A stretch of DNA of 64,000 bases from Candidatus Heimdallarchaeota archaeon (GTDB taxonomy: Archaea; Asgardarchaeota; Heimdallarchaeia; Hodarchaeales; Hodarchaeaceae): NCBI GenBank assembly GCA_020353515.1, contig CP070695.1, positions 666,843 to 730,842 on the forward strand. The letters run 5' to 3'. Under the pieces are notes generated by a model. The model was not told the DNA's origin and did not search any database. It worked only from the letters and a program-made list of their open reading frames with translations. Position 1 is the stretch's first letter. Each line of letters begins with the position of its first letter. Shown one piece after another: positions 23,649 to 31,744 of this stretch. Position numbers and translations under genes: made by a program.

Positions 23649-24005
23649 AAAACATAAATCTATTGATTTAACTACTGCATGGACATTTCTTTCATCAAAA
23701 CACTTGAATAAAAGAGATTGTCCTTAATTCTAATATATAAAAATCCTTGAAAATCTTTTCTGTGTTCAATATGTTTAGTAGAAATACATTGGATTTTCTA
23801 TGAATTATGAAGCAAAGTACCAATATTAAAGAGTTCATTCAACATTCAAAGGTTTGATTTATTTGATCTGATTTGATTAATTTAAAAAAGGGGAAAATTA
23901 TCGTGAACTAAAGCTTATCATTGTAATACACATATATAACTGAAACATATAAAGAACATACTCTGTAACTAATGACGAAAAAGGACTCCACCTCACTATC
24001 AAAGG

Positions 24006-27000
24006 ATGCTTGTTAATATGGCCTCGGAAGGAAAACTTCTGGTTTCGAAGGAAGTTCTTCATAAAATTAGAGATTTAGTGACTGAACTACGCTCAATTGA
24101 CCCTACAGTGCAAGTCGTCTCCGCTTTAAATGAAGCTCAAAAATTAGTGATAGAAATTGAAAAATTAGAGATAGCTTTACCTAAAGCTGGATTTTTTAAA
24201 AAGAGGGGAATTAGAAAAACTCTTACTCAGGATAGAGAAAAGTACAATAAGCTTACCGAGGAGTTACTTAACGCTCTTTTAGTTGGATTTCGTAAGATTT
24301 ACTTTGATCTAGCAAACAACATCAAAGAAATAGCTAAGTTTATCCCCCAAGAAACGGAGACTATACGGAAACTACAGATCCCGAGTTTTGATGTGAACGA
24401 AATTCTGAGGTTTAGTTCGAATGTTCTGAGAACATATAATCAGATTTCCGAGGTTCTACGAGGAAAAAATGTTTCAATCTTATTATTTAATCGTGAAATA
24501 ATCGAGCTATATGGAAAATTTGTCAATTTTGATGAAGAAAAGGTTCGGGCAACTAATCAAACAACAAAAACTAGTATCCATGTGATGACAATTCCAGATT
24601 TACTTGAAGTTTATAGTATGCTGGAAGCTGAAAATGCGTATCTAAAACAACGAAGGAAGGGTACAGAGGGTAAAATTCAACTGGCAATTGTTCAAATGTC
24701 CTCTGAGCTGCAACAGCATATTGATACTGTTGCATCAATTGGTTTAGATCTTTGGAGCAAAATTGATATATTGAAAGAGGAAGTCCAAGATATTCAAACC
24801 AATGCGGACAGAACTACCTCAGTAGAAACTCTCATCTCATTAGAAAAGCGGTTAAATTCTCTAAGTAATGAATTCATCAACATGTTACGAACCTATGAGA
24901 TATCCCTTAAGACAGAAACAGAGGATCAAATTGGACGCATAATACAAATTTTTGGAAAAGAAGGATTAGAATCAGCTTTTTCCCCAGTTCCAGAAACAGA
25001 TATTTCATCTACTAGTATCCCAACCATAATCCAAGATATCGAAAAAATACGTTCTTGGCGCCAACAACAGATTATTGCTACAAAGAAAATCCTAAGTACG
25101 TCAGAGTTAGTTAATTCATCTAAAGCTATACGTGCGATGAAGATACCAGTTCCTCAAGATTTTGTGAAGAATGTACGTACGATTGAGAAAGAAGCAGCAA
25201 AAACAAGCGATCTACAAGAGTGGGTAGAATTAGCAAAGCGTTATTATGACTTGAAATCATCTCTAGCTGAAGAATGTCAAAACTATTTCTTTAGGCTACT
25301 TGAAAATCCACATATTCAAGAGGTCATTAACTTAAGTGAAGGGCCTCAAATTCCAACCATTCGCGATTTTGAAGCTCTCAGTCCCAGTGAATTGAGTACT
25401 AAAGCTCGTGAAATAAAAGATTGGGAGACCCGTTTGGTTGCATATTTCTCAAAGCCAGCTCAACAAAGTCTTAGACAAAATTTGTTAAATCTATATGATT
25501 CCCGTGAAAGTTTACGAGACATCTTATCTGAAGACCTAAAAACTCAAATCGATTATCAAAGAAAGCAGAAAATTGCCGAAGAAATTGATATACGCGATTT
25601 AGTTCATGAGATTGAAGGTCTACATAGACTTAATTCAAATATAAAAACTGAACTTTGGAACAAAATAGACAATGAAATACATCCTATTTACAATCAACTA
25701 ACTAATCTCGAAACAATTCCCCCAAAACTAAAGGTACATGTCCCAATTCTAGCAATAGACGATTTAAAATCCTTCCGAGAAGAGGTTGGTGAGGCAGCTC
25801 AAAAAAGTACTCAGGAGCTCTTAGATGAGTACGAAAAAATTCCCCTCTGGAAATATAAGATTTCATCACGGATTCGTGAAAATTTGAAATCAATACCCTT
25901 TCCACTAATTCCTGTAGAGACACGTTTCGATTTGAGGGAAAAGCGTAACCAAATTGTGGAACTTATTGATGAATATTCAGAATTAGGAAATATAGAGGCT
26001 GTAATTAAAGAATATATCTCCTTTTTAGAAACGATTGAAGAGAATAAGAAAGAAATTCTTATCGAATTGAAAAAACAAATCGGAAATCTAGAAGGAGTCG
26101 ATAGAAGATTATTTAGATTACTAAAATCTCGAAAGACCAGTTTAATTTATTCTACTGATAAAGAAATCGATGGACTTGATTATTCCGAAGCTCTAACAGA
26201 ATTTTGGCAATTATCAGCTTTTATCGATCGGAAAGCATCTACATTAGCAGAACAAATGGAACGTGAAATTTCCTCTCATATTCAGGACTATTCAAAGCTT
26301 CCTATTCAGTATGCAGGTTTTTTTGATGAAACTTTGGATCTTATGAAAGAAAAGATGGATGAAATCAAAACTCATAAAGATATTGTTCGTTTAGTCAATG
26401 TTTTTGAGAGTTACAGCTTGGAAAGCTTACAGATGTCAAAAGATTCCTTAGCTAAACTTCATCAGAATCTCTATAACTGGTTAAGAGTTAGTCTTCCGAG
26501 GATAAACGAAATAACACCTCTTGATGATACTATTTTTAGCGCAGAGAAGAAAGTTGCCGATTTTGAGGCTGAAGAAGTCTCTCATGAACGATTAGCTCAT
26601 AAATTAAGACAGCTGATTTTCCTCTATGATACAGAAATATTATCTGTCTTGCTGACACATGGAGTACAAGAATCACGAAGGGTTCTGAAAAATGTTAATG
26701 ATTTGAAAGAAGTCGGTATCAATATCATTGAGTTTGTTGGAGGGTATATTGAAAATTTTAGTCAAATAATTGTCAAAAACCAAGAAGATGTTCAATTACG
26801 AGAAATCACAGATGTTTTTGTCGAGATTGATAATTTACAGACTGATCCCAAAGCTTGTCGCGAAATTCGTTCAATGGGAAAACGATATATTACTGAAATT
26901 CAAGATTCCGTTGAATATCTATTTAATCATTATCAAATTGATTTACGTCAGGATGAACGGGTTGATCTTGCATACCTAAGTCAGTTTCAAGAAATAGCAA

Positions 27001-27521
27001 CAACTGATCATGTTAGTCGTTTAACTGAAGCAATTCTCAGACTAGTAGCAGTGAGAAGTTCTGTAATTGAGATCATGAAAACAATTGAAAAAAGTCGAAA
27101 TGCATCCTTGCAAACTGAATTAGGGGAGTTAGAATACTATTCTAACATTCAAGAAGTGTTTAAGAGATATACTGAAGAAGCTTCAAAGAAGATATTTCCT
27201 TTATCTGAGTTAGTAAAAGCTCGTGAGGAATTTCTTGATTCTCATGATCTTAGATATATATTGGAGTTATTACCACAAATAGATGAACAAAGAAATGAGT
27301 GGAAAAAAGTATCAATCCAGCTAAATCATTGGCACCGTGCAGTTCGAATGTTTCGGCCACGATATACACCAACAGAAAGTAGAGAAGAGAATTTACGGTT
27401 TTACAAAGAAATATCGAAGAAAATTAAAGAAACATATCCTCACAACGAAGTAATTCGTTCATATTTGAGCTTAGTTATGAAATTACTTATTGAAATTAAA
27501 TCTGGAATTAAATTGGATTAA
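24006..27521 (+). CDS. Large all-helical tandem-repeat protein (about 15 repeats of about 68 aa)
   Basis: 1171 aa, E/L/I/K-rich, no TM or NTPase motif; recurring helix N-cap motif (TIPDLL, SVETLI, SIPTII, DLQEWV, DIRDLV, NIEAVI, DIVRLV, DLRYIL). Confidence 0.75.
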   Translation: MLVNMASEGKLLVSKEVLHKIRDLVTELRSIDPTVQVVSALNEAQKLVIEIEKLEIALPKAGFFKKRGIRKTLTQDREKYNKLTEELLNALLVGFRKIYFDLANNIKEIAKFIPQETETIRKLQIPSFDVNEILRFSSNVLRTYNQISEVLRGKNVSILLFNREIIELYGKFVNFDEEKVRATNQTTKTSIHVMTIPDLLEVYSMLEAENAYLKQRRKGTEGKIQLAIVQMSSELQQHIDTVASIGLDLWSKIDILKEEVQDIQTNADRTTSVETLISLEKRLNSLSNEFINMLRTYEISLKTETEDQIGRIIQIFGKEGLESAFSPVPETDISSTSIPTIIQDIEKIRSWRQQQIIATKKILSTSELVNSSKAIRAMKIPVPQDFVKNVRTIEKEAAKTSDLQEWVELAKRYYDLKSSLAEECQNYFFRLLENPHIQEVINLSEGPQIPTIRDFEALSPSELSTKAREIKDWETRLVAYFSKPAQQSLRQNLLNLYDSRESLRDILSEDLKTQIDYQRKQKIAEEIDIRDLVHEIEGLHRLNSNIKTELWNKIDNEIHPIYNQLTNLETIPPKLKVHVPILAIDDLKSFREEVGEAAQKSTQELLDEYEKIPLWKYKISSRIRENLKSIPFPLIPVETRFDLREKRNQIVELIDEYSELGNIEAVIKEYISFLETIEENKKEILIELKKQIGNLEGVDRRLFRLLKSRKTSLIYSTDKEIDGLDYSEALTEFWQLSAFIDRKASTLAEQMEREISSHIQDYSKLPIQYAGFFDETLDLMKEKMDEIKTHKDIVRLVNVFESYSLESLQMSKDSLAKLHQNLYNWLRVSLPRINEITPLDDTIFSAEKKVADFEAEEVSHERLAHKLRQLIFLYDTEILSVLLTHGVQESRRVLKNVNDLKEVGINIIEFVGGYIENFSQIIVKNQEDVQLREITDVFVEIDNLQTDPKACREIRSMGKRYITEIQDSVEYLFNHYQIDLRQDERVDLAYLSQFQEIATTDHVSRLTEAILRLVAVRSSVIEIMKTIEKSRNASLQTELGELEYYSNIQEVFKRYTEEASKKIFPLSELVKAREEFLDSHDLRYILELLPQIDEQRNEWKKVSIQLNHWHRAVRMFRPRYTPTESREENLRFYKEISKKIKETYPHNEVIRSYLSLVMKLLIEIKSGIKLD

Positions 27522-27560: not shown

Positions 27561-28931
27561 ATGTCAATTGAAGGAGGACCAGAATCAGAGATCTTTGCAA
27601 TTGGGATTGGTGAATGTGGCAGTAATCTCCTTGGGAGCTACCTAGCCAGATCTAAAAAAGGTGAGTTGCCTCAACGTATTAGAGAATATCTAGTACTGAA
27701 CACTGATAAAGGTGATTTACTGAAAGCCCGAAAAAAATATTCTATTTCAAAGAACCGAACCCTTCTCTATTCAGATGCAGAAATTGGAGTTGGGGGTAAG
27801 TTCTCAGCTGGTTATGAATCTGTAATAAACTCTCAGGACATTATTTTAAACCAGTTACAAGGGTTAGGTTATGAAGGAATTAGTGGATTTTGTATATTTA
27901 CAAGCTTTGGGGGAGGTACTGGATGTGGGGGAACACCTGCATTAATACAATTATTAAGAAAACGATTTGCTGAAGAAGAAAAACGTAAAATCTTCATATA
28001 CGTCTTTGGGGTCTTACCTTTCGTTAATCAGTCATCTGAAGCAGTTAATAGCGTCTGGGCTTTGTCGAAATTACTTAGACTTCAGCTCGAGGAAGGAAAT
28101 ATGGGACCAGATCTGATACTTCTTCTTTCTAATAGAACCATGCTTGAAAGGGTTTTAAGCTGGCAACGTGGGGAATCTGTCGATCTTTTGAGTCGCCAAA
28201 TAGGAAAAGATTTAGCTGACTTAAGTAGTGAACAGGTAAGTTCTAGTATTCCCACAGTTATCGGTCAAGATGGAACAACTTATCCAACCCAACTGGAAGA
28301 GGCTTTTGTTGAACTGGTTAATCCTCTAGCTTTGGAATCAATAGCTGAAATGTTATCACCTGGAGTACCAGAAGTTGGAAAGGAGGTTCTACCCACTACG
28401 GATATTGGTGACTTTGCGCTAAAATTAGATAGTGTCGTTGTACCTGCTATGTTTGATGATTTATCCGTTTTCCCAGAAATCGGAGGGATGGATTCTCAGC
28501 TTTCAACTGCTGTAGAATATACTCTTTCTAATTGTAGCTTAACGGATATGGGAACGAACCCAACTGCATCATCTGTTTTCTCAGTACTAAGCGGCCCCCG
28601 TAACATTGCGCGAGTAGAATATGATCCCCTTTTGAAAAAAGCATTGGCTCCTTTTCTAGCAAAAGGTGCGAGTATTTCTCCTACTTATTGTGCTTATGAT
28701 GATGATAGCACACGAGCATCTCTTCTTCTTTTGTTTGGTCTGCCAAAAATTCCAGAACTTCATGATATTCTTGAAGAAGCTAAAGCACTCATTAATCTTC
28801 ATAGTGGGGACTCTGAATTGAAACAACACTGGTTTAAACGTTCAAAAGGTACAACGCGAAAAGAACTTGATGAGGCCGTAAATGATCTGGAAAAATTATT
28901 CGGTTACTATATAAAACCAGAAAAAGGATAA
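27561..28931 (+). CDS. Tubulin/FtsZ-superfamily GTPase with tubulin-like C-terminal helices
   Basis: EIFAIGIGECGSN (T1), LNTD (T2), GVGG (T3), SFGGGTGCG (T4 signature), VLPF, EAVNS, TDIGDF (T7), C-terminal HWF...G...ELDEAVNDLEKL..YY. Confidence 0.92.
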   Translation: MSIEGGPESEIFAIGIGECGSNLLGSYLARSKKGELPQRIREYLVLNTDKGDLLKARKKYSISKNRTLLYSDAEIGVGGKFSAGYESVINSQDIILNQLQGLGYEGISGFCIFTSFGGGTGCGGTPALIQLLRKRFAEEEKRKIFIYVFGVLPFVNQSSEAVNSVWALSKLLRLQLEEGNMGPDLILLLSNRTMLERVLSWQRGESVDLLSRQIGKDLADLSSEQVSSSIPTVIGQDGTTYPTQLEEAFVELVNPLALESIAEMLSPGVPEVGKEVLPTTDIGDFALKLDSVVVPAMFDDLSVFPEIGGMDSQLSTAVEYTLSNCSLTDMGTNPTASSVFSVLSGPRNIARVEYDPLLKKALAPFLAKGASISPTYCAYDDDSTRASLLLLFGLPKIPELHDILEEAKALINLHSGDSELKQHWFKRSKGTTRKELDEAVNDLEKLFGYYIKPEKG

Positions 28932-28945
28932 GGTGCTAGATCAAA

Positions 28946-30025
28946 TTGGATAGAAGAGATCCGTCAAGGTTTGATTATACCCAAAAGCGCTCAGCTTCTA
29001 ACGAATCTATAGAAAGGCAACAAGACACAAAACAAGATCAAGTCGAGCGTAAAATCATTTCTTCAGATTTTTGGACATCCAGAGGAAACATGGGCGAGAA
29101 GATTAACATCTTAATTGGATTGAATCTTCAACTTATTAACATAATTTCCTCTTTAGTCCAAATACTAAGTAGAGAAAATACTCTAAGTGAAGATATGAGA
29201 ATAAGTTTAGAAATGACTAAGGAATTCCTTTCCAAAATAACCATACAGCCCGATTCAGGTTTGGAAATTTTAAAAAATCTCGAAACAATTGACACTAAAG
29301 TGACTACATTAATGGAGGGACTTAATACTGGAGTGTCACCGATAGCTATTGAAAAAGAACCCCAGGATGCTCCAGAAAAGATTTTTGGTTTTTTTCAACG
29401 AAATGCGGTCTATCTTGATAAATGGGGAATAATTGATTCTATTGATAACCTACAAGCCTCTTACTCGAACTTATCTCACTTGGGTTTTCCTAATTACTAT
29501 TCTTCTGCTTGTAGAGAATTACATCGTTATGAGATCCAACAAAATGCTCCTTTTTATAGCCAGTCTGAAATTATACAACTTCCTTCTTTTAAACTCAGAG
29601 ACCTTATAAGTAAGCTTCTACGAGAAGCGCCCGCCGCTCGGTTACTGCAAAATCTTCGTAAAATATTTCCTGCAGAACATGATTCAGCTCTTACATCAAC
29701 AGAACAAGATAAAATCCAAAAAATAGTAGAAATGTACTATAAATGTATTTCAGAATATTTCAATGAAACTCGCAGCTTGCAGGATTCCCTCCGCATCTCA
29801 TCAGGCATTCTAAAGAACTATAATCTAGGGACTGGAGACTTAGAATCGAGAATACCTAATGTCTCATTTAATATTGTGAAAGAAATCAGCTTAGACCTCC
29901 AAAATGCCAAAGATGATGAATTAAGAAGGTATATATTATCAGAAACTATCATCCTGATTCATCGATTGAATGATTCACTTTTACAGACAGAAAGATTTGT
30001 TCTCTTCTTGAGGCGTCTGAAATAA
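28946..30025 (+). CDS. Helical hypothetical protein in the tubulin-like cluster
   Basis: 359 aa, 14 nt downstream of the tubulin-like gene; predicted helical; no family recognised. Confidence 0.7.
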   Translation: MDRRDPSRFDYTQKRSASNESIERQQDTKQDQVERKIISSDFWTSRGNMGEKINILIGLNLQLINIISSLVQILSRENTLSEDMRISLEMTKEFLSKITIQPDSGLEILKNLETIDTKVTTLMEGLNTGVSPIAIEKEPQDAPEKIFGFFQRNAVYLDKWGIIDSIDNLQASYSNLSHLGFPNYYSSACRELHRYEIQQNAPFYSQSEIIQLPSFKLRDLISKLLREAPAARLLQNLRKIFPAEHDSALTSTEQDKIQKIVEMYYKCISEYFNETRSLQDSLRISSGILKNYNLGTGDLESRIPNVSFNIVKEISLDLQNAKDDELRRYILSETIILIHRLNDSLLQTERFVLFLRRLK

Positions 30026-30115
30026 CTTTTTTTTTATGTTTTAAGATATAATTAAAGATTTAAATTTCAGGTGTATTTTTGTTAAGAGTGAAGGAACTTC
30101 GTGTGAGGTAAGAAT

Positions 30116-31009
30116 ATGGGAATAGAAGATGGCATTAAAAATATACAGCAGATGACTTTGGAAAATAAGCAGTCACTCAACAAAATTCAAGATTTTGTAA
30201 GCACACTTCAAGGAATTCAAGATCCTTCCCAATCAATCCAAAATCTCTCAATGGTACTATTGAATTTTGAAGAAAAACTCGAACAATCAAACGAAAAAAT
30301 GAGAGGAGAAATGAACTCCATCCTTGAACTGGTTGATTCTTCACGGATAAGTACGGGTTTACAATCTTCAATTGAGAGTCTCCCCCAAATGATCTTGAGT
30401 CTTGAGGAATCCCTTGGAACTATTCTTAGTACGTTTGAGAAGACTTCTGAAGAGACAAAGAACGATTTGAAATTTATTAAGGTTAGTTATGTGGAAGATG
30501 TTGTTGGTAACATGCGTAATTTGTCTAAAGAAATTATAGATAAGGTGAATAGCTCCAACGACAGAACTACAGCCTTATATGAAGCCAGTGTTGGCCACTT
30601 TGGGGAAATAGTGGAAAAATTGAATAACATTGAAAGCAGCTTAAATGCACTAGTTGAGAATCAAGCAGATCAATTAGCAACTGTAGCAGATCTCAGGGAT
30701 CGTGTTAGTGCAATTATTCAGGTAGAATTGGCATCACTGCGTGATCGTATTGCAATCTATCTAGAGACAACTATAAATGAGCTAAAAACATCAGTAACGG
30801 AACGGTTAGCCGTTCAAGATGGAACTCTTCAGAAATTAACAAAAGTAACAAAACAATTAACTCAGAATATTGCAGCCCTACCTGAAGTAATAAAACAGCA
30901 AATTGATTCAGCAGTTGAAACAAGAGTAACAGCTGAACTAGCTTCAATGAAGAAAGAAATGAAGAAAATGACTGCATTAATTATTCAAGCTACAAAACGG
31001 TCTTCATGA
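30116..31009 (+). CDS. Long coiled-coil protein
   Basis: 297 aa of continuous heptad-like sequence with almost no aromatics; SD gaggt upstream. Confidence 0.75.
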   Translation: MGIEDGIKNIQQMTLENKQSLNKIQDFVSTLQGIQDPSQSIQNLSMVLLNFEEKLEQSNEKMRGEMNSILELVDSSRISTGLQSSIESLPQMILSLEESLGTILSTFEKTSEETKNDLKFIKVSYVEDVVGNMRNLSKEIIDKVNSSNDRTTALYEASVGHFGEIVEKLNNIESSLNALVENQADQLATVADLRDRVSAIIQVELASLRDRIAIYLETTINELKTSVTERLAVQDGTLQKLTKVTKQLTQNIAALPEVIKQQIDSAVETRVTAELASMKKEMKKMTALIIQATKRSS

Positions 31010-31744
31010 GTCAGCTGCTATTCGTTCAAAATTGTACGCTTCAAACATACCTCTTTCTGTCAAGAACTTGAATAGATCGAGAATTACCTCACCTTTATCG
31101 GTTCCAAAGCGTTCTAGACAATCATTAAATGAAACCATACTGTTCTTATCTAGCATGTCTTCAATTAACTGATCAAGACCTTCTTGAGGGATATCTCCTT
31201 TCATTTCTTTAATTTTAGGAAATTCTCTATAGAATGAATAAAGTTTCCCCCCACGAGGGGTTATTTCAAATAACAAAGTTGCAGGGTATTTAACGTATTC
31301 ATTTAGACTAGCAAACTGATCACCATAGATTCTCGACATTTTATCTCTGAAAAAATAAGCAGAAATAAGTGTTCCAACTCCAGAAAAGGAACTTTTCTGA
31401 AAGATAGGGTCATCCAGCTCCTCTGTATAATTATCTTCAAATTTCCTAACAAACTTCAATAAATCATTACGAATATTATATTCTTCACGTTCTTTAGCGT
31501 CTTTTTCAAGAACTACAATCGCGATCGCGATTACACGCTGTCCTTGCTCTAAAATCATATCTGCACCTTCCCCAAAGTCCACCTTTGATAATGATCCTTC
31601 ACCAATAGCTTCCATTCCGAAACTCCTCAGTGCCATTAGGAGGGAGCCAATCATGTCTTGATCTTGTTCAGTTGCACCAAATGATTGGCTATAAATAGTG
31701 AAGCCTTCGTCAGTTATTAAATAGACTGCTTTAAGACGAACCAT
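31004..31744 (-). CDS. Longin-domain protein with probable C-terminal winged helix
   Basis: AVYLITDEGFTIYSQSF...DMIGSLLMALRSFGMEA...FVRKFEDNY Asgard longin pattern; LFKFLTERGMFE at the C-terminus. Confidence 0.7.
   Translation of the reverse strand: MVRLKAVYLITDEGFTIYSQSFGATEQDQDMIGSLLMALRSFGMEAIGEGSLSKVDFGEGADMILEQGQRVIAIAIVVLEKDAKEREEYNIRNDLLKFVRKFEDNYTEELDDPIFQKSSFSGVGTLISAYFFRDKMSRIYGDQFASLNEYVKYPATLLFEITPRGGKLYSFYREFPKIKEMKGDIPQEGLDQLIEDMLDKNSMVSFNDCLERFGTDKGEVILDLFKFLTERGMFEAYNFERIAADS

Follow-up and report, generated by a model that had tools for sequence, protein, structure and literature searches.

A CetZ-related, Asgard-specific protein of the tubulin superfamily with tubulin-like C-terminal helices, encoded between two conserved helical partners

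The window analyzed here is a 64,000-nucleotide stretch of the genome of Candidatus Heimdallarchaeota archaeon (Hodarchaeaceae; assembly GCA_020353515.1, contig CP070695.1, positions 666,843 to 730,842), and its gene at positions 27561..28931 of the forward strand encodes a member of Asg.Tub, a published CetZ-like group of Asgard archaea. We consider it likely that Asg.Tub is an Asgard-specific lineage separate from both canonical CetZ and true tubulin, and that the protein forms a GTP-driven polymer with a tubulin-like ridge and partner proteins. A GTPase half of the CetZ/FtsZ kind is joined in this protein to terminal helices resembling H11' and H12 of tubulin, and the gene sits in a conserved three-gene cassette. 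An earlier note on the window, made from the sequence alone, had described the protein as a mosaic from a lineage intermediate between CetZ/FtsZ and true tubulins. Coordinates below are those of the window unless another locus is named.

The open reading frame (ORF) at 27561..28931 (+) is genuine and encodes a 456-amino-acid (aa) GTPase of the tubulin/FtsZ superfamily (P0001; cassette gene 2). In Pfam, the Tubulin/FtsZ GTPase domain PF00091 covers residues 10-171 (E 2.8e-17; 64 bits vs a cut-off of 33), Tubulin_C (PF03953) gave no match at E up to 1, and the FtsZ_C domain was likewise not found. The NCBIfam equivalog for FtsZ, TIGR00065, scored 29.7 bits, so far under its cut-off of 295.2 that FtsZ identity is ruled out; a separate, genuine FtsZ is encoded in the same genome. 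Two CetZs were the top PDB sequence matches (3zid, E 1.7e-7; 4b46, 8.7e-6), followed at about 1e-4 by many alpha-tubulins, which matched just around the GGGTG signature in the T4 region.

For the C-terminus, the earlier note had proposed by eye a resemblance to tubulin H11'-H12. MAFFT L-INS-i, applied to a cross-family alignment with CetZ, FtsZ and tubulins, independently reproduced this resemblance, placing HWF..KG..ELDEA..DLEKLFGYY opposite tubulin HWY..EGM..EFTEA..NMNDLVAEY, and profile-profile comparison found it to go beyond chance. When residues 414-456 of the family were compared by hhalign with a 71-sequence tubulin profile, they matched residues 396-428 of beta-tubulin with a score of 24.8 (E 1e-3), with 24% identity over the 33 aligned columns; column-shuffled controls scored 12.2±2.5 with a maximum of 22.2 (0/200 reaching 24.8), and the reversed C-terminal family profile scored 12.6. 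With only three Odin-type tubulins as the target, the score was 23.8, at positions 382-420 of 425, and none of 100 shuffles came as high. The match is collinear and lies at the H11'-H12 position in both of these separate tubulin sets. Profiles of canonical CetZ, of P0163 (a 3zid relative), of Halo.Tub-like proteins and of FtsZ gave C-terminal scores within or near the shuffle range, so that, as judged from these profiles, Asg.Tub appears as the sole non-tubulin group among those tested with a detectable tubulin-type H11'-H12 sequence. Within the family, the residues behind this match, W424, F425, R427-G430, L436, A439, D442, L446 and F447 are invariant or nearly so. The pattern of bona fide tubulins in this region (HWY...EG....EF.EA..N...L..EY) is thus found in the sequence and, as described below, in the predicted structure. 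The accompanying statement that FtsZ and CetZ lack such a C-terminus was too strong. The family profile gives no signal against either group, but CetZ structures do have H11, and in HMMER the final ~48 residues of 3zid are weakly aligned to residues 404-449 of the query, a stretch that is not significant alone; given this pairing, a blanket claim that CetZ lacks such helices goes too far.

The GTPase half carries a different signature. In the 71-sequence family alignment (A1), on which all invariance figures rest, the N-terminal strand and T1 loop read EIFAIGIGECGSN, with G15, G17, E18, G20 and N22 invariant; the T1 nucleotide-binding loop itself (GIGECGSN, residues 15-22; 27603..27626, +) lies opposite tubulin GQCGNQ and CetZ GQAGGK, and both alignments bear out the tubulin-like N-terminus that had been noticed in the sequence. 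The T3 loop (GVGGKF, residues 76-81; 27786..27803, +), by contrast with GAGNNW of tubulin, is of the CetZ/FtsZ type, as had also been observed; it is aligned with CetZ GVGADN, and its residues G76, G78 and G79 are invariant. The T4 signature GGGTGCGG (residues 117-124; 27909..27932, +), with G118, G121, C122 and G123 invariant, is the region behind the alpha-tubulin sequence matches. In the T7 synergy loop (TTDIGDF, residues 279-285; 28395..28415, +), which lies opposite FtsZ NLDFAD and tubulin NxDxxE/K, the acidic position is kept as claimed: D281 and D284 are invariant in all 71 sequences, the paralog clade included, and D284 is aligned with the catalytic acid of FtsZ and of alpha-tubulin, making it the predicted catalytic acid. 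All of the T1-T6 loops expected of a superfamily GTPase are present, as is the G-box GGGTG(S/C)G, with motifs invariant in the family.

Two further features distinguish this half of the protein. In the L-INS-i alignment, an insertion of ~46 aa relative to CetZ and tubulin, specific to the family, separates H6 from H7 after the LLLSN strand (S200-L245; 28158..28295, +), which agrees with the roughly 45 aa estimated earlier. Its first part is a conserved helix (205-214 in the model), and the remainder is variable and disordered (~215-240), the AlphaFold model having predicted local distance difference test (pLDDT) values below 50 at 215-218 and 222-242. As in CetZ and FtsZ, H1 and S2 are joined by a short loop, which leaves a gap of ~30 residues opposite the tubulin loop (in the model, H1 spans 17-32 and S2 40-47). 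No acidic tail is present in the window protein.

An AlphaFold2 model built on A1 (pLDDT 84.6; predicted template modeling score, pTM, 0.85) was compared by Foldseek and VIA-align with PDB structures. The superfamily fold, with two domains around H7 and the T7 acid, is recovered (Z 35-37 for the best matches, with D284 invariant in the family). The last helices are modeled as H11 (398-413), H11' (419-429, containing HWF) and H12 (433-450), corresponding to 28752..28910 (+), with pLDDT of 87-94 for residues 391-440 and 83 for 441-450. Tubulins ranked first, the best being OdinTubulin (7evb; Z 37.1, root-mean-square deviation (rmsd) 2.9, 361 residues aligned), which is aligned end to end (model 7-454 with chain 2-423). 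Next came beta-tubulins, BtubA/B and AtubB (Z 35.5-36.4), with alignments ending at model 452-454 and chain 421-437. The alignment with CetZ2 (4b45; Z 35.3, rmsd 2.7, 327 residues) covers model 9-416 and ends after H11. Because these Z values are nearly tied, the fold gives no discrimination between tubulin and CetZ; the informative point, within the limits of a predicted model, is how far each alignment extends. The superposition of H11 and H12 was judged from these alignment ranges, and on this measure the predicted packing of the last ~60 residues agrees with what the earlier note had expected, tubulins reaching model 452-454 and CetZ2 stopping at 416. The S7-H9 (M-loop) segment is ~10 residues long in the model (300-309).

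The main phylogenetic tree contained 61 rows (12 family members, 26 distant representatives, 17 tubulins of eukaryotic, Btub, Asgard and Odin origin, and 6 Asgard FtsZs) and was built under LG+C20+F+G4 with posterior mean site frequencies (PMSF) and a careful search; trees and profiles were made without artubulins and without 3zid itself. Distant relatives were sorted into CetZ and CetZ-like by their PDB sequence matches, NCBIfam having given sub-threshold FtsZ matches alone. The core Asg.Tub family and FtsZ were each supported at 100/100. Asg.Tub was excluded from the clade of 17 tubulins (100/100; stem length ~2.1 substitutions per site) and from the canonical CetZ clade of 12 members (100/97), which contains P0143 and P0152, matching Haloferax CetZ1 at E 1e-113 and 1e-87. 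As the earlier note had anticipated, the family therefore branches within neither canonical CetZ nor FtsZ. Together with a few long-branched relatives, it adjoins a Halo.Tub-like group (53/75; 77 in another tree). When the tree was rooted with FtsZ, Asg.Tub, the Halo.Tub-like group, P0133/P0151 and tubulin came together, apart from canonical CetZ (89/63), with support of 41/59 for their mutual order. A quick tree from which seven long rows were removed gave the same picture, and so did a tree from which all columns after residue 395 were removed (support 83-88); the placement, unchanged without these columns, is not driven by the C-terminus. An approximately unbiased (AU) test of a clade uniting the family with canonical CetZ gave ΔlnL 10.5 and p 0.041, a borderline value for groups named post hoc from the tree. 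In these trees, Asg.Tub appears on the tubulin side with moderate support (83-89) and not as the specific sister of tubulin. What remains of the proposed intermediate lineage is a CetZ/FtsZ-like GTPase half joined to a tubulin-like C-terminus, outside canonical CetZ; the betweenness itself does not follow, as the nearest groups are Halo.Tub-like and the relation to tubulin has support of 41/59.

A word-indexed homolog search returned 150 matches at E up to 0.001. The best 120 of these are 52-98% identical to the window protein, and the named homologs among them are all from Asgard archaea (Hodarchaeales, Heimdall-, Thor-, Hermod- and Loki-/Promethearchaeota). When 50%-identity representatives were searched exhaustively, no more than three full-length clusters were recovered before similarity fell to E ~1e-10. 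At the level of sequence, the family is compact and strongly conserved: its members in Hod-, Heimdall-, Thor- and Loki-labeled genomes share at least 52% identity.

The name Asg.Tub was given to a CetZ-like Asgard group with coiled-coil-rich neighbors (Santana-Molina, del Saz-Navarro & Devos 2023, Front Microbiol, PMC9871819), represented by four sequences, OLS26264.1, PWI48967.1, KXH77455.1 and OLS30664.1, two of which are Thorarchaeales sequences. Its placement in that study varied between the tubulins and CetZ, with the authors cautiously favoring a position nearer to CetZ; in their Fig. 6 tree, Asg.Tub is paired with Halo.Tub (62), artubulins adjoin tubulin, and Asg.Tub lies outside. A C-terminal hidden Markov model of the four sequences matched no other superfamily member in that study. 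The window protein is a member of this group. OLS26264.1, listed in supplement 35 of the paper, is our P0071, which is 56% identical to the window protein and falls in the same 100/100 core clade; the C-terminal alignment, as far as it is printed, reads as the family of the window protein; and PWI48967.1, from the Heimdallarchaeia genus B3-JM-08, is ~85% identical to it by eye over the printed C-terminal part and is probably, on that part, its same-genus ortholog. The restriction to Asgard archaea and the helical or coiled-coil neighbors that mark the group are both found here. In the 2026 work on AtubAB, Asg.Tub serves as an outgroup under the description "CetZ-related Asgard archaeal clade" (bioRxiv 10.64898/2026.02.15.705738; published as Sci Adv, PMC13394414). 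The lineage is therefore already known, if little studied, and is not a new discovery; in the literature we found no study devoted to its structure or function.

We surveyed 400 Asgard genomes of the phylum, defining true tubulins by Pfam Tubulin_C. Asg.Tub is encoded in 126 of them, including 20/21 genomes of the genus of the window, 15/19 of family f12 and 76/89 of families f31-f33 taken together (all listed matches among these being in f31), and is found in 0/31 and 0/135 genomes of two other families. Tubulin_C occurs in 8/400 genomes, none of them the genome or genus of the window, and true tubulins have been reported in ~1% of Asgard genomes (2026 AtubAB study, bioRxiv 10.64898/2026.02.15.705738; PMC13394414). 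No genome of the 400 encodes both a true tubulin and Asg.Tub, where ~2.5 overlaps would be expected by chance; this non-overlap is suggestive, a pattern and not a test, given the small numbers and the non-independence of related genomes. The genome of the window, a single closed contig of 4.94 Mb, encodes one FtsZ, the window gene and a 441-aa Asg.Tub paralog. At E up to 1e-30, a single FtsZ was detected in every genome of this genus, and two in each of three genomes from another family of the same class.

The gene lies in a conserved cassette in which a large helical protein precedes Asg.Tub and a helical protein of ~355 aa follows it, with intergenic gaps of 39 and 14 nucleotides (nt). Cassette gene 1 (24006..27521, +) encodes an all-helical protein of 1171 aa without a Pfam family; its homologs elsewhere have 871-1396 aa. 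Cassette gene 3 (28946..30025, +) starts with TTG 14 nt past the Asg.Tub stop and encodes a 359-aa helical protein of no known family or fold, with homologs of 299-392 aa. A gene 1 homolog is directly upstream of Asg.Tub in Heimdall LC_3, Thor, a Loki-labeled genome and a distant genome (BLAST E 1e-16 to 1e-52), and the downstream homolog is adjacent in the same genomes, so that both partner families extend to LC_3, Thor, the Loki-labeled genome and a 42%-identity outlier. Among further loci, the upstream partner is adjacent in 26/29 and the downstream partner in all 28 with enough flank. Of the three upstream exceptions, one is a truncated contig, and two are same-genus loci with an unrelated large ORF instead. 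Both partners evolve faster than the tubulin-like protein, at ~20-28% identity against ~55%. A second copy of the module lies in the same genome at G000:C1:2897440-2902179 (locus L004, 9420..14180, -), where a 1140-aa paralog of the upstream partner (23% identity, E 2e-61, collinear over the full length) lies ahead of the 441-aa Asg.Tub paralog, which shares 55% identity with the window protein. Several same-genus genomes hold two module copies.

Fold searches gave little for the partners. The model of the downstream partner (pLDDT 76.8; its helical domain at 150-359 is confidently predicted) found no convincing match (all Foldseek E >=0.4, VIA-align Z <=9.5); the best VIA-align match was a generic three-helix bundle at residues 43-133, leaving the 150-359 domain unmatched in the whole-model search. 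The ESM Atlas search with the upstream partner returned solely a Thor cluster of its own family. Neither partner had a Pfam match above cut-off, nor did the two proteins encoded next to the cassette, of 297 and 246 aa. A complex prediction for the tubulin-like protein with the downstream partner scored 0.00, which is no answer and evidence neither way.

Upstream of gene 1 lies an AT-rich intergenic region with TATA-like stretches, a presumed promoter (23649..24005, +), and a T9 tract after the gene 3 stop (30028..30036, +) is a likely archaeal oligo-T terminator that would close the unit. Codon 5 of the 1171-aa ORF is a further in-frame ATG (24006-24020); the ESM Atlas entry begins there, so the true start of gene 1 may be 24018. 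At the two same-genus loci just mentioned, L025 (3080..4342, -) and L026 (1..1146, +), a large co-directional ORF with no detectable similarity replaces the upstream partner, while the Asg.Tub gene and the downstream partner are retained. Beyond the T9 tract, a gene preceded by an AT-rich region of its own encodes a 297-aa coiled-coil protein (30116..31009, +) and may be an accessory gene; it is 49-56% identical and syntenic in three same-genus genomes and is not found beside the cassette in LC_3, Thor, the Loki-labeled genome, G310 or the distant genome. A convergent gene (31004-31744, -) encodes the 246-aa protein, which has syntenic counterparts at 65-72% identity in three same-genus genomes only and, beyond these, a weak winged-helix (HTH_45) match alone.

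The previously published description of Asg.Tub and ours have in common the family, the coiled-coil-rich neighbors and the unstable position between CetZ and tubulin. Where PMC9871819 had four sequences, we used 71 and a profile-profile test of the last 43 residues, which yielded a specific match to tubulin H11'-H12, and we find a wider distribution (126/400 genomes) and two defined, conserved partner families. By sequence and profile, the nearest family is CetZ (Haloferax volcanii CetZ1 and CetZ2, 4b46 and 4b45; Methanosaeta thermophila, 3zid), with which Asg.Tub shares the short H1-S2 loop, a GVG-type T3, the D..D arrangement of T7 and the overall fold; unlike CetZ, it has the ~46-aa H6-H7 insertion, tubulin-like H11'/H12 and a different gene neighborhood, and the canonical CetZ clade excludes it. 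True tubulins (eukaryotic alpha/beta, OdinTubulin 7evb, AtubA/B 9f6t, BtubA/B) are the best full-length structural matches (Z 35.5-37.1) and share the pattern W-[FY]..G....E[LF].[ED]A..[ND][LFM]..[LI]...Y and the T1 cysteine (GxCG). In contrast to them, Asg.Tub has no Tubulin_C, GAGNNW T3, long H1-S2 loop or acidic tail and has a short S7-H9 (M-loop) segment, its identity to tubulin is 14-20%, and it falls outside the tubulin clade (100/100). The absence of the first four of these, which are defining features, excludes a true tubulin. The Halo.Tub-like proteins (P0137, P0148, P0150, P0155), the nearest outgroup here (53/75, 77) and in the published tree (62), show no detectable similarity to the H11'-H12 profile of Asg.Tub and have no H6-H7 insertion. 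One of them, P0150 (450 aa), has the tubulin-type T3 GAGNNW that Asg.Tub does not have; tubulin-like motifs thus appear to be scattered in a mosaic manner among non-canonical archaeal groups. The H11'-H12 signal may be new, as may the wide distribution of the family, its lack of co-occurrence with true tubulins and the three-gene cassette with its first two genes duplicated.

GTP-dependent head-to-tail polymerization is established for FtsZ, CetZ and tubulin. For Asg.Tub we infer polymerization, GTPase activity, co-transcription, partner binding and a cellular role along the following lines. GTP would be bound through the intact T1-T6 loops, as in FtsZ, CetZ and tubulin, and subunits would, by analogy with the same proteins, assemble head to tail into protofilaments, in which D284 of one subunit would complete the GTPase site of its neighbor and activate hydrolysis; an acidic T7 consistent with homopolymer GTPase activity had been pointed out before, and since both paralogs keep the T7 acids, nothing points to a division of labor like that of alpha- and beta-tubulin. 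H11, H11' and H12, modeled as in tubulin, would give the filament a tubulin-like outer ridge. The gene would be co-transcribed with the two family-specific helical proteins (~870-1400 aa upstream and ~300-390 aa downstream), which probably scaffold, bundle or regulate the filament, and the H11'-H12 ridge with the RSKG loop could be their docking site. Binding of such partners at the H12 surface in the manner of microtubule-associated proteins (MAPs) or motors, which the earlier note had also envisaged, is conjecture. A stronger proposal, that the H11'-H12 ridge is older than tubulin proper and was kept in Asg.Tub as a docking surface for co-encoded helical proteins, which would make the family the closest living model of how the partner-binding surface arose, we put forward only as a tentative and rather unlikely one.

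Several observations weigh against the reading of Asg.Tub as a separate lineage with a polymer, ridge and partners. No experiment is on record for any family member. The two same-genus loci without the upstream partner indicate that it is not obligatory, and a homolog of the downstream partner was found neither at the paralogous locus nor elsewhere in the genome. The placement of the C-terminal helices rests on AlphaFold, which may favor learned tubulin structures, and in absolute terms hhalign gives the 33-column match a low probability (14-21% at E 1e-3), so that the case for this match leans on the shuffle control and on collinearity. Finally, the whole-protein profile is far nearer to CetZ than to tubulin: full-length hhalign gave a probability of 99.8 and E 4e-30 over 351 columns for CetZ, against E 5e-10 over 117 columns for tubulin. 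This last comparison, the two CetZs (3zid, E 1.7e-7, and 4b46) at the head of the PDB sequence matches, the weak HMMER pairing of the 3zid C-terminus with residues 404-449 and the judgment of the authors of PMC9871819 would all suit a divergent CetZ-type cell-shape protein, in which the C-terminal signal would be an ancestral helix pair, e.g. of the Methanosaeta type, or an amphipathic convergence. We regard this as a genuine possibility, though one with clearly less than even chances, as the canonical CetZ clade excludes the family (100/97) even without the C-terminal columns, the C-terminal profile has no signal against canonical CetZ or P0163, and the gene neighborhood is unlike that of CetZ. 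An ordinary canonical CetZ is excluded by the tree.

The opposite reading, in which Asg.Tub is a true intermediate or sister of tubulin with an H11'-H12 ridge homologous to the MAP/motor surface and already in that role, is in our view unlikely. It accounts well for an H11'-H12 profile that matches tubulins including Odin and no other tested group, for OdinTubulin as the top structural match over the full length, for FtsZ-rooted trees with the family on the tubulin side (89/63, 88, 83) and for an AU test that disfavors a canonical-CetZ clade (p 0.041). Yet the groups of that test were picked post hoc, the nearest groups in every tree are Halo.Tub-like or non-canonical with the tubulin relation at 41/59, the tubulin stem of ~2.1 substitutions per site makes long-branch effects likely, the published tree sets artubulins by tubulin with Asg.Tub outside (PMC9871819), and the four tubulin features named above are missing. 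That the C-terminal resemblance is an artifact of helical composition and of an AlphaFold bias toward tubulin we hold to be improbable: the match is short (33 columns), its hhalign probability is 14-21%, and the model was compared by alignment ranges and not coordinates, but composition-keeping shuffles reached it in 0/200 and 0/100 cases, the reversed profile scored 12.6, the match is collinear at the extreme C-terminus in two tubulin sets, and W424, F425, G430, L436, A439, D442, L446 and F447 are (nearly) invariant in the family. Least plausible by far is a recombination mosaic, in which an Asgard tubulin gene supplied the final ~40 codons of a CetZ-like gene. The discordance between the CetZ-like GTPase half and the tubulin-like H11'-H12 profile, and the presence of true tubulins in other Asgard lineages, would fit such an event; however, identity of just 24% over 33 columns implies that any transfer was very ancient, the tree without the C-terminus gives the same position, and 0/400 genomes carry both a true tubulin and Asg.Tub. 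The separate lineage outside canonical CetZ and true tubulin is, accordingly, the reading that we retain.

The origin of tubulin and of its MAP/motor-binding surface is an open question in eukaryogenesis. Asg.Tub is far commoner among Asgard genomes than true tubulin (126/400 vs 8/400) and highly conserved, and its combination of a CetZ-like GTPase half, apparently tubulin-like last helices and a conserved cassette bears on the origin of the outer surface of tubulin. With two defined partner genes, what had been a "CetZ-like outgroup" becomes an experimentally tractable system. If the C-terminal similarity reflects ancestral retention or convergence, Asg.Tub would be one more divergent archaeal protein of the tubulin superfamily; if the docking-surface reading is true, it would represent an Asgard system of a filament with MAP-like proteins that is widespread among Hodarchaeales and Thorarchaeia and present solely in genomes without true tubulin.

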